From the IMG/VR virus record IMGVR_UViG_3300031555_002904: a stretch of 64,000 nucleotides of DNA. The stretch is one strand, 5' to 3'. Shown one piece after another: positions 11,531-11,907 of this stretch. The DNA is from a virus. Its lineage: Duplodnaviria; Heunggongvirae; Uroviricota; Caudoviricetes. A program made the position numbers and the translations under genes. Under the pieces are notes generated by a model. It was not told the origin of the DNA and did no database searches. It saw only the letters and a list, made by a program, of their open reading frames with translations. The number at the start of each line of letters is the position of its first letter. The first letter of the stretch is position 1.

Positions 11531-11618
11531 GGAAGAGTAAGCATAATTGGTACTGCCTCGGTCTAGAAAACCGTTCGTCGGCAACGGCGTGCAGGTTCGA
11601 GTCCTGTCTCTTCCGCCA
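11531..11618 (+). tRNA. tRNA-Ser(AGA) (A34; type II)
   Basis: Acceptor ggaagag/ctcttcc, anticodon loop ctAGAaa on a 4-bp stem, long variable arm, G73 and CCA. Confidence 0.5.
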
Positions 11619-11668
11619 ACATCCATATCCCTTTAACATTGATTTTGATACGAAAGGTGAGATATGCG

Positions 11669-11815
11669 ATGAGTTTTCCTACAAACTGTTCTACTTGTCA
11701 ATTCCGCAACCGTTGTGATGCGGCTATGTATACTGACAAGTGTCACTTCTATGGAAAAGAAGATAAACCACAGAAGTTTAGCTTCAAGCGTTTTTTCTTC
11801 AAGTTTTTCGCCTAA
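11669..11815 (+). CDS. small Cys-rich hypothetical protein (48 aa)
   Basis: Translation MSFPTNCSTCQFRNRCDAAMYTDKCHFYGKEDKPQKFSFKRFFFKFFA, ending TAA. Confidence 0.35.
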   Translation: MSFPTNCSTCQFRNRCDAAMYTDKCHFYGKEDKPQKFSFKRFFFKFFA

Positions 11816-11830
11816 TAAAACTTGTTATAT

Positions 11831-11907
11831 GCTTCCATAGCTCAGTTGGCCAGAGCAACGCACTAGTAATGCGTAGGTCGTCAGTTCGAATCTGACTGGA
11901 AGCTCCA
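11831..11907 (+). tRNA. tRNA-Thr(AGU) (A34)
   Basis: Acceptor gcttcca/tggaagc, perfect anticodon stem acgca/tgcgt with loop ctAGTaa, T-arm gtcag/ttcgaat/ctgac, CCA. Confidence 0.7.

Follow-up and report, generated by a model that had tools for sequence, protein, structure and literature searches.

Two transfer RNA (tRNA) genes that carry adenosine at the wobble position of the anticodon (A34), outside the arginine family, occur in a 64,000-nucleotide (nt) stretch of phage DNA (IMG/VR virus record IMGVR_UViG_3300031555_002904, Caudoviricetes), which is called the window here. A tRNA-Ser(AGA) gene spans positions 11531..11618 and a tRNA-Thr(AGU) gene spans positions 11831..11907, both on the + strand. 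Few anticodon states of bacteria are as rare as A34 in tRNAs other than tRNA-Arg, and decoding by unmodified A34 in vivo is poorly known. In principle, A34 reads NNU codons through a Watson–Crick pair, where G34 or a modified U34 would wobble. We consider it somewhat probable that the two genes encode functional, selectively maintained phage tRNAs that read NNU codons with an A34 that most likely stays unmodified, an assignment based on their anticodon loops and on precedent.

Both genes are called by ARAGORN and produce full-length matches to the Rfam tRNA covariance model RF00005 (model positions 1–71 in each case), with scores of 43.8 bits for tRNA-Ser(AGA) and 69.6 bits for tRNA-Thr(AGU) against a gathering score of 29. 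This agreement upholds the initial annotation, which described both genes as well-folded tRNAs with A34 and named covariance-model annotation as one way to check them. The tRNA-Ser(AGA) gene is of type II, with the anticodon loop CUAGAAA, an acceptor top formed by G1-C72, G2-C71 and A3-U70, a G at position 73 and an encoded CCA end. Its long variable arm corresponds to a 14-nt insertion at the variable position that forms a stem-loop in the computed fold. The tRNA-Thr(AGU) gene has the loop CUAGUAA and an encoded CCA end, and its sequence and alignment contain the identity elements G35-U36, G1-C72 and C2-G71. Its stems are perfect, as had been noted earlier for the anticodon stem.

Each of the two anticodon loops comprises 7 nt with U33 and a purine at position 37, closed by a 5-base-pair (bp) stem. 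In the covariance-model alignments, the anticodon arms of both tRNA-Ser(AGA) and tRNA-Thr(AGU) carry the posterior-probability symbol '*' throughout, ARAGORN concurs with this register, and neither alignment contains another register that gives a different triplet at positions 34–36. The initial annotation recognized that an alternative fold exposing a different triplet would overturn its anticodon assignments. Such a fold or register is ruled out, because the alignment, at maximal posterior probability, fixes CUAGAAA and CUAGUAA as the two loops. The minimum free energy structure computed by RNAfold for the tRNA-Ser(AGA) gene is not a cloverleaf, and single-sequence predictions of this kind are unreliable for tRNAs. 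Thus, tRNA-Ser(AGA) and tRNA-Thr(AGU) are genuine tRNA genes with the anticodons as stated.

The possibility that A34 reflects an assembly error or a private mutation is also ruled out. The 700-nt region at 11301–12000 is present with 100% identity in four further assemblies from separate samples, and a fifth assembly represents a diverged strain (roughly 97% identity) in which the A34 loops of both genes are retained. The phage occurs in JGI samples 3300023371, 3300022660 and 3300018494 and in ENA assemblies ERZ27248436, ERZ27248306 and ERZ28654512.

To place these genes in an evolutionary context, we assembled a lineage set consisting of the window and 50 IMG/VR loci that are homologous by the ATPase encoded in the tRNA array (contigs of up to about 240 kilobases (kb), with 957 tRNAs in total). 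The related IMG/VR contigs of 100–240 kb include IMGVR_UViG_3300028805_000039. The ATPase homologues are mostly situated within + strand tRNA arrays. For the Ser UCN box, these 51 loci yield 19 tRNAs with A34, 27 with U34, one with G34 and none with C34. The corresponding counts for A34, U34, G34 and C34 are 2, 27, 6 and 5 in the Thr ACN box, 5, 31, 13 and 1 in the Leu CUN box, and 2, 36, 2 and 2 in the Pro CCN box. A34 is therefore the usual purine state of the Ser UCN box in this lineage (19 AGA versus 1 GGA), and Thr(AGU), Leu(AAG) and Pro(AGG) recur among the related loci. Covariance-model scores reach 72.3 and 69.9 bits for the tRNA-Thr(AGU) genes of loci L124 and L176, respectively, and 54.3, 59.8 and 51.4 bits for tRNA-Ser(AGA), tRNA-Pro(AGG) and tRNA-Leu(AAG) of locus L146. 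At no point across the 51 loci do A34 and G34 occur together in one box of one locus.

The lineage includes 16 distinct tRNA-Ser(AGA) sequences whose identities range from 44 to 100% (median 69%). In an alignment of 13 of these sequences, double changes that compensate each other are found in 18 of the 21 stem pairs. The loop CUAGAAA does not vary in this alignment, and both the type II Ser features and an unusual D arm are conserved. Compensatory changes are likewise present in 12 of 21 stem pairs among nine tRNA-Thr(AGU) genes. Covarying stems around a fixed A34 loop are, at the level of sequence comparison, a signature of functional tRNAs under selection. Both tRNA types are thus evidently selected, because their stems covary while the loop stays fixed.

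These patterns bear directly on whether the genes are instead decaying or non-functional tRNA copies, or tRNAs with mis-assigned anticodons. The tRNA-Ser(AGA) gene does score lower in the covariance model, contains a U27-U43 mismatch and has an irregular D arm with one extra base ahead of the D stem, and the Cys(ACA), Phe(AAA) and Ile(AAU) calls of relatives resemble poor tRNA-like sequences that lack CCA. However, the covariance-model alignment is unambiguous, the genes are identical across samples, and the loop is invariant and the stems covary over a range of 44–100% identity. Even the unusual D arm is conserved, and its layout is common to the related loci L174, L176 and L124. Decay or mis-assignment is therefore highly improbable and already largely refuted.

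The Cys(ACA), Phe(AAA) and Ile(AAU) calls of relatives, which place A34 in split boxes, were considered as support for unmodified A34 and were set aside because CCA is absent or the stems are weak. As a separate observation, some tRNA-like genes of these arrays do not encode CCA, and their acceptor ends are rich in A/U. In the window, these are an Arg(CCU) gene and one Pro(GGG) gene (4953–5024 and 6912–6984, +), and the 'Cys(ACA)' genes of eight relatives (L131 7565–7638 and seven further loci) are of the same kind. The D arm ATAGTCAAAnGGTTAAGAC is common to these CCA-less tRNA-like genes, which may represent a distinct class of tRNA-like RNA.

Both A34 genes reside in a phage tRNA array (4953..23979, +) that comprises 41 genes called by ARAGORN and 42 Rfam tRNA matches. 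The array covers all 20 amino acids and includes two CUA suppressors, with small open reading frames (ORFs) and a ROOL RNA interspersed. The initial annotation framed the two genes against the rules for bacterial tRNAs, but they are phage genes. Their array has more than 41 tRNA genes, and phage RNA-repair, nicotinamide adenine dinucleotide (NAD)-salvage and endolysin genes surround it. Each A34 tRNA has a U34 partner in its box: tRNA-Ser(UGA) at 19288..19375 and tRNA-Thr(UGU) at 18771..18846 (both on the + strand and found by ARAGORN and Rfam). Neither Ser(GGA) nor Thr(GGU) is present among the array tRNAs called by ARAGORN. The array also encodes a canonical A34 tRNA, tRNA-Arg(ACG) (12514..12591, +; ARAGORN), which is its sole CGN-box tRNA and whose loop CUACGAA is the known substrate motif of the bacterial deaminase TadA.

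In the Ser UCN and Thr ACN boxes, A34 occupies the role usually held by G34. It would most likely stay adenosine and form Watson–Crick pairs with UCU and ACU, perhaps with weak reading of UCC and ACC, and the U34 partners Ser(UGA) and Thr(UGU) would serve the A- and G-ending codons. Codon usage was determined from 50 + strand ORFs of the window. ACU is the commonest Thr codon, at 52%, and in the UCN box the commonest is UCU, at 54%. The U-ending shares per box are 0.54 for Ser, 0.52 for Thr, 0.47 for Gly, 0.46 for Arg, 0.41 for Val, 0.39 for Ala, 0.35 for Pro and 0.20 for Leu, such that the two highest values among four-codon boxes belong to those with tRNA-Ser(AGA) and tRNA-Thr(AGU). In relatives that carry tRNA-Ser(AGA), UCU accounts for 0.44–0.80 of its box, and only a weak codon-usage trend separates loci with this tRNA from those without it. 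The array as a whole has features of a codon-supply system, including + strand clustering with phage genes, promoters and anticodons for heavily used codons.

The initial annotation reasoned that A34 in Ser and Thr tRNAs would call for either a deaminase of broader specificity or unusual decoding. The loop specificity of TadA is UACG in Escherichia coli and is widened only to UAMG in Streptococcus pyogenes, with a consensus of YUACGAA (PMC11472039). The loops of tRNA-Ser(AGA) and tRNA-Thr(AGU) resemble TadA substrates in that they are 7 nt long, contain U33-A34 and sit on a 5-bp stem. However, their loop cores UAGA and UAGU differ from UACG and UAMG at positions 35 and 36, so that C/A35-G36 is absent. 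The tRNA-Arg(ACG) loop CUACGAA matches the TadA consensus.

Searches for a deaminase gene gave negative results. No motif of the cytidine deaminase (CDA) fold (H/CAE ... PCxxC) is present in a six-frame scan of the 64-kb window, no deaminase domain was detected by Pfam on its 50 ORFs, and none was found in 5.3-kb and 9-kb flanks (14 kb). Across 987 kb of lineage loci, a tblastn search with E. coli TadA gave no similarity, and scanning for the motif found nothing either. A scan of IMG/VR with E. coli TadA returned one unrelated contig only, and a single-protein search of this kind reaches only close relatives. The deaminase that the initial annotation suggested seeking elsewhere in the genome was thus not found in the window, its flanks or the 987 kb of relatives. 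Because no deaminase gene was found and the loops are without C/A35-G36, unmodified A34 is better supported, and of the two options named earlier it is the one invoking unusual decoding that gains ground.

The alternative is that A34 is converted to inosine (I34), either by a relaxed host TadA or by a phage deaminase encoded outside the examined sequence, in which case each tRNA would read U-, C- and A-ending codons as the substrates of eukaryotic ADAT2/3 do. We regard this as possible but on the unlikely side. Inosine would account for the lack of a phage G34 tRNA for UCC and ACC, each of which makes up 29% of its box. Furthermore, tRNA-Arg(ACG) is the only CGN tRNA of the array, so TadA activity is required in the infected cell, and the phage relies on at least some such activity for this reason. 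The range of TadA has been widened at least once in Firmicutes, to Leu(AAG) (PMC11472039), the Leu(AAG) loop CUAAGGA of relatives fits the consensus YUAMGRA, and Ser, Thr, Leu, Pro and Arg are all within the eukaryotic I34 set (PMC8007984). Yet all demonstrated bacterial TadA substrates have G36 together with C or A at position 35, in contrast to G35-A36 and G35-U36 here. Moreover, the Ser(AGA) and Thr(AGU) tRNAs of Oenococcus oeni are reported to be without the modification (PMC8072771), and no deaminase gene was found in roughly 78 kb of the phage genome or 987 kb of relatives.

Several observations weigh against unmodified, functional A34 in these tRNAs. In this phage, whose genome is at least 187 kb long, the deaminase search covered about 78 kb, and the TadA motif rules derive from E. 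coli as well as S. pyogenes, and may not be those of the host enzyme. The tRNA-Ser(AGA) gene scores 43.8 bits compared with 57–58 bits for other Ser tRNAs, in addition to its U27-U43 mismatch. UCC and ACC remain well used in the absence of a phage G34 tRNA for either, and a self-sufficient tRNA set would be better served by I34 than by unmodified A34. Finally, U:C ratios are alike in the A34 boxes, the Arg (I34) box and the Gly and Ala (G34) boxes. Codon usage was therefore discarded as a discriminator between A34 and I34, because ratios this similar prevent the codon-usage match from separating the two states.

Unmodified A34 is consistent with several known systems. The initial annotation called A34 in Ser and Thr tRNAs a eukaryote-like pattern, but it is not specific to eukaryotes, as O. 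oeni, Leuconostocaceae, Mycoplasma and Lactobacillaceae carry Ser or Thr A34 tRNAs. The A34 tRNAs of O. oeni are reported to be exactly those that carry Arg, Leu, Thr and Ser, and I34 was found on Arg and Leu and not on Thr and Ser (PMC8072771; PMC11066159). According to that work (Rafels-Ybern et al. 2019), O. oeni shares with the phage the presence of Ser(AGA) and Thr(AGU) beside Arg(ACG), the replacement of G34 isoacceptors and a Firmicutes-type system. The O. oeni genes reside on the chromosome of a lactic acid bacterium, whereas those described here lie in the tRNA array of a phage with a probable Clostridia (Oscillospirales) host. Leuconostocaceae use Thr(AGT) instead of a GNN tRNA (PMC8007984). 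In Mycoplasma, tRNA-Thr(AGU) is reported to keep an unmodified A34, with which it reads ACU, ACC and ACG (PMC11066159). The Mycoplasma capricolum tRNA is likewise reported to be a bacterial Thr tRNA with unmodified A34 (Andachi et al. 1987; Inagaki et al. 1995, cited in PMC11066159), although it belongs to the minimal tRNA set of a reduced genome and the phage set is large and redundant. The hallmarks of this unmodified-A34 group, namely AGA and AGU anticodons, no G34 isoacceptor and a U34 partner in the set, are all found here.

When 185,579 species genomes were scanned for the core of tRNA-Thr(AGU), chromosomal genes were identified in Ligilactobacillus, Limosilactobacillus and Paralactobacillus. 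These Lactobacillaceae genes are identical to the phage gene in the D arm, anticodon arm and variable loop (GAGCAACGCACTAGTAATGCGTAGGT), whereas their acceptor and T stems have paired changes, leaving 56–60 of 74 positions identical. The Lactobacillaceae genes are also single and do not encode CCA, in contrast to the phage gene, which is in an array and encodes CCA. With U34 in place of A34, the shared core is the commonest core of phage tRNA-Thr(UGU) genes (111 of 120 matches), and for this reason its presence in both groups is no proof of transfer.

Two further comparisons involve A34 tRNAs that are deaminated. The Leu(AAG) tRNAs that become Leu(IAG) in S. pyogenes, O. oeni and Lactobacillales through an expanded TadA are non-Arg A34 tRNAs that exclude G34, as observed here; indeed, Leu(AAG) and Leu(GAG) are mutually exclusive in bacterial families (PMC13249217). 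Leu(AAG) keeps G36 and fits UAMG, whereas the phage Ser(AGA) and Thr(AGU) do not, and Leu(AAG) with a matching loop occurs in phage relatives and not in the window. The eukaryotic ADAT2/3 substrates Ser(AGA) and Thr(AGU) match the phage tRNAs in their anticodons, and in them, too, A34 replaces G34. However, ADAT2/3 is a heterodimer that ignores the loop sequence and needs the whole tRNA, no such enzyme was found here, and the phage tRNAs are of the bacterial type: CCA is encoded, and the Ser tRNA has the type II architecture of bacteria. The finding thus belongs with the non-Arg A34 tRNAs of Firmicutes-type systems, to which it adds a phage lineage with A34 as the standard purine of the Ser box.

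Outside this lineage, such tRNAs are scarce. Non-Arg A34 accounts for 1–2% of tRNAs in two samples of unrelated IMG/VR loci, and the initial annotation was right that A34 outside Arg is unusual for bacterial-type sets. Ser(AGA) constitutes 1 of 95 UCN-box tRNAs in one of these samples compared with 19 of 47 in the lineage. When IMG/VR was searched with the Thr anticodon arm of the window and position 34 left free, the 120 matches had U in 111 cases, A in four, C in three and G in two. The equivalent search with the Ser anticodon arm gave U in 102 cases, C in 13, G in three and A in two, and only one of the two A matches is a tRNA. The exact tRNA-Thr(AGU) anticodon arm has no match among 50,697 phage records. 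A review states that phage tRNA sets are without the same 'prohibited' ANN anticodons as bacteria (PMC8007984), and the literature searched, with incomplete coverage, contains no published account of phage A34 Ser or Thr tRNAs. The phage-borne location and lineage-wide conservation of these tRNAs therefore appear to be new.

Promoter-like elements indicate how the A34 genes may be expressed. A near-identical element consisting of TTGATTTTT, a spacer of about 12 nt and TGnTATAATATATAT (also given as TGnTATAATATATATGTAAG) occurs in 21 + strand copies in the window, compared with 0.21 expected, and is found in the related contig L176 as well. The sites include positions 4900, 5337, 5802, 6307, 8198, 12627, 16032, 20884, 22659 and 26789, and extend to 54957. 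Both A34 genes sit between the copies at approximately 8.2 and 12.6 kb. The first of these, a sigma-A-type promoter at 8178..8212 (+; TTGATT ... TGtTATAATATATAT), is the nearest upstream of both genes, and the next, at 12607..12641 (+), is the putative downstream limit of their transcription unit. No further copy lies between these two, and no terminator-like site was found in the scanned stretch from 10.3 to 13.0 kb. The A34 tRNAs are thus probably made within a long early transcript of tRNAs and ORFs from host-type sigma-A promoters, and would then be charged by SerRS and ThrRS. Between the two A34 genes lies a 48-codon ORF (11669–11815, +) with a Shine–Dalgarno-like sequence, AAAGGTGAG, that would encode a Cys-rich peptide (MSFPTNCSTCQFRNRCDAAMYTDKCHFYGKEDKPQKFSFKRFFFKFFA). 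This ORF was considered as part of the feature and was ruled out, because the spacer is not conserved and the colinear L176 has no ORF there.

The phage genome is at least 187 kb, as one assembly carries the window on a 186,841-bp contig (JGI 3300023371, Ga0216340_10000249). Downstream of the array, a dense block of RNA-repair and NAD-salvage genes occupies positions 26886–56547 (+). Its RNA-repair and processing genes encode a Ro60/TROVE-like protein (26886–28445), a vault-shoulder-domain protein (30777–33257), a Thg1-like protein (38923–39786) and an RNA ligase (43147–44574), all on the + strand, together with a cyclic-phosphate receiver (cREC_REC), an RlaP-like protein, several metallophosphatases and phosphoesterases, and RNase T. 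The NAD-salvage set comprises NAMPT, nicotinamidase, phosphoribosyl pyrophosphate (PRPP) synthetase, Sir2, NAD synthase, NADAR, NMNAT and Macro; an HD gene lies in this part, and genes for a PNK-like kinase and phosphatase follow the NAD genes. Other neighbours encode a sigma-70 factor (40627–41547, +), PhoH/PIN and two cell-wall hydrolases.

This RNA-repair set (RNA ligase, PNK-like kinase/phosphatase, Thg1-like, cREC_REC, RlaP-like, Ro60-like and RNase T) suggests that defences which cleave RNA exert pressure on the phage, and bears on another explanation for A34. Specifically, A34 could be mainly an escape variant, in which A34 versions replacing G34 Ser and Thr tRNAs go unrecognised by a host anticodon nuclease and translation continues once host tRNAs are cleaved, an explanation that is compatible with either decoding model and that we consider unlikely. 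Phage tRNAs are reported to evade tRNA-targeting defences by changes in the anticodon loop (PMC10264068; PMC11555353), and the HEPN nuclease HepS cleaves tRNA-Thr(GGT) best and also cleaves Ser and Ile tRNAs (PMC13043305). The evading tRNAs of mycobacteriophage and T5, and the HepS targets, share with the present case the replacement of host tRNAs by phage tRNAs, altered loops and RNA-repair genes. However, known evading phage tRNAs alter the loop but keep the anticodon, whereas here the wobble base itself differs. The rule proposed for HepS (U36 with G at position 34 or 35) still fits AGU (PMC13043305), and the chromosomal Thr(AGU) genes of Lactobacillaceae have A34 without a phage-defence context. 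In addition, the candidate nuclease is hypothetical for the host, and escape draws on gene context and literature precedent.

The host is probably a member of Oscillospirales, as suggested by two weak lines of sequence evidence. The endolysin is nearest to those of Faecalibacterium phages (about 60% identity) and of one Acutalibacter phage, and L176, a 2.5-kb contig that is colinear with the array of the window, is binned in a metagenome-assembled genome (MAG) of Acutalibacteraceae that includes JAZQGH010000003.1. The gene order on this contig is Ser(AGA)-Thr(AGU)-Val-Gly-His-Arg-Arg(ACG), then Ile-Pro-Pro with an extra Leu(CAA) ahead of Ile. A Lactobacillaceae host, which the shared Thr(AGU) core might suggest, is not supported, because the endolysin kinship and the binning of L176 point elsewhere. 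No close cultured relative was found: a distant BLAST comparison of positions 11300–13000 with the 50,697 phage records gave scattered tRNA matches only, and the nearest cultured homologues of the array AAA ATPase are in Bacillus Herelleviridae phages (about 41% identity). The source is probably a large phage of gut or rumen Firmicutes.

The array contains additional RNAs of note. A full-length ROOL RNA (16280–16871, +; 312.6 bits, model positions 1–574) lies inside it and is directly followed by a 136-nt Rfam tRNA match (16878–17013; 33.3 bits) with no ARAGORN call, possibly a tRNA with an insertion; ROOL is present in the tRNA array of relative L158 as well. A partial match to OLE RNA (22527–22610, +) covers only model positions 439–592 and scores 53.5 bits, where the gathering score is 50. 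It lies between two Lys tRNA genes and represents a fragment or a shared motif rather than a full OLE RNA. The arrays of relatives include the orphan Rfam RNAs RAGATH-33, cow-rumen-3 and drum (L125 12797–12909; L146 6191–6331; L176 1861–1971), as well as phage-encoded transfer-messenger RNA (tmRNA) genes (L131, L132, L135, L138–L141, L152, L154 and L156) with tags such as DNNYFDSHMAA. Further ARAGORN tRNA calls, in which an 8-nt loop presents a four-base anticodon (taaa, tgtt or taga), occur in L131–L143, L147, L160 and L166 (for example, L139 9902–9975) and in L124 (19612–19683). In many relatives, these calls occupy a conserved place right after the Met tRNA, and they may be frameshift-type tRNAs or miscalls.

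Two adjacent CUA (amber suppressor) tRNAs are located at 20681–20755 and 20756–20852 (+), the second of which is 97 nt in length with a long variable arm. A gene entering the start of the window (1–312, +; with L192 4553–5635) encodes an RF2-type release factor that contains the motifs SPF and GGQ, and together these genes suggest that TAG is reassigned in part of the phage. TAG is the rarest stop codon in the window (5 of 50 ORFs). A stop-codon-recoded reading of the window itself was rejected, as ORF statistics favour no recoding in this region. Protein-coding genes in the array include two for PD-(D/E)XK_5 endonucleases (9595–10008 and 17352–17759, +), and the array is followed by an EcoRI-like adenine methyltransferase gene (24283–25506) and a GmrSD/HNH gene (25521–26711).

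The A34 genes of this lineage qualify a published statement according to which such anticodons are avoided in phage tRNA sets. We offer, as a tentative possibility, the broader proposal that, in a lineage of large Firmicutes phages, A34 has displaced G34 from the Ser box (19:1) and, more than once, from the Thr, Leu and Pro boxes, and that this amounts to a decoding strategy specific to the virus. This strategy would use either dedicated unmodified-A34 tRNAs, which may favour NNU-rich phage messages or resist host anticodon nucleases, or an unseen A34 deaminase of a bacterial or phage system that acts on multiple substrates. If true, it would contradict the published view of phage sets without ANN anticodons (PMC8007984). 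Dozens of genes for Ser(AGA), Thr(AGU), Leu(AAG) and Pro(AGG), diverged in nature and evidently under selection, make the lineage a natural test set for asking what permits or prevents a broader substrate range of TadA and whether A34 reads U-ending codons faster or more selectively. If A34 protects these tRNAs against anticodon nucleases, it would represent a new kind of phage counter-defence.

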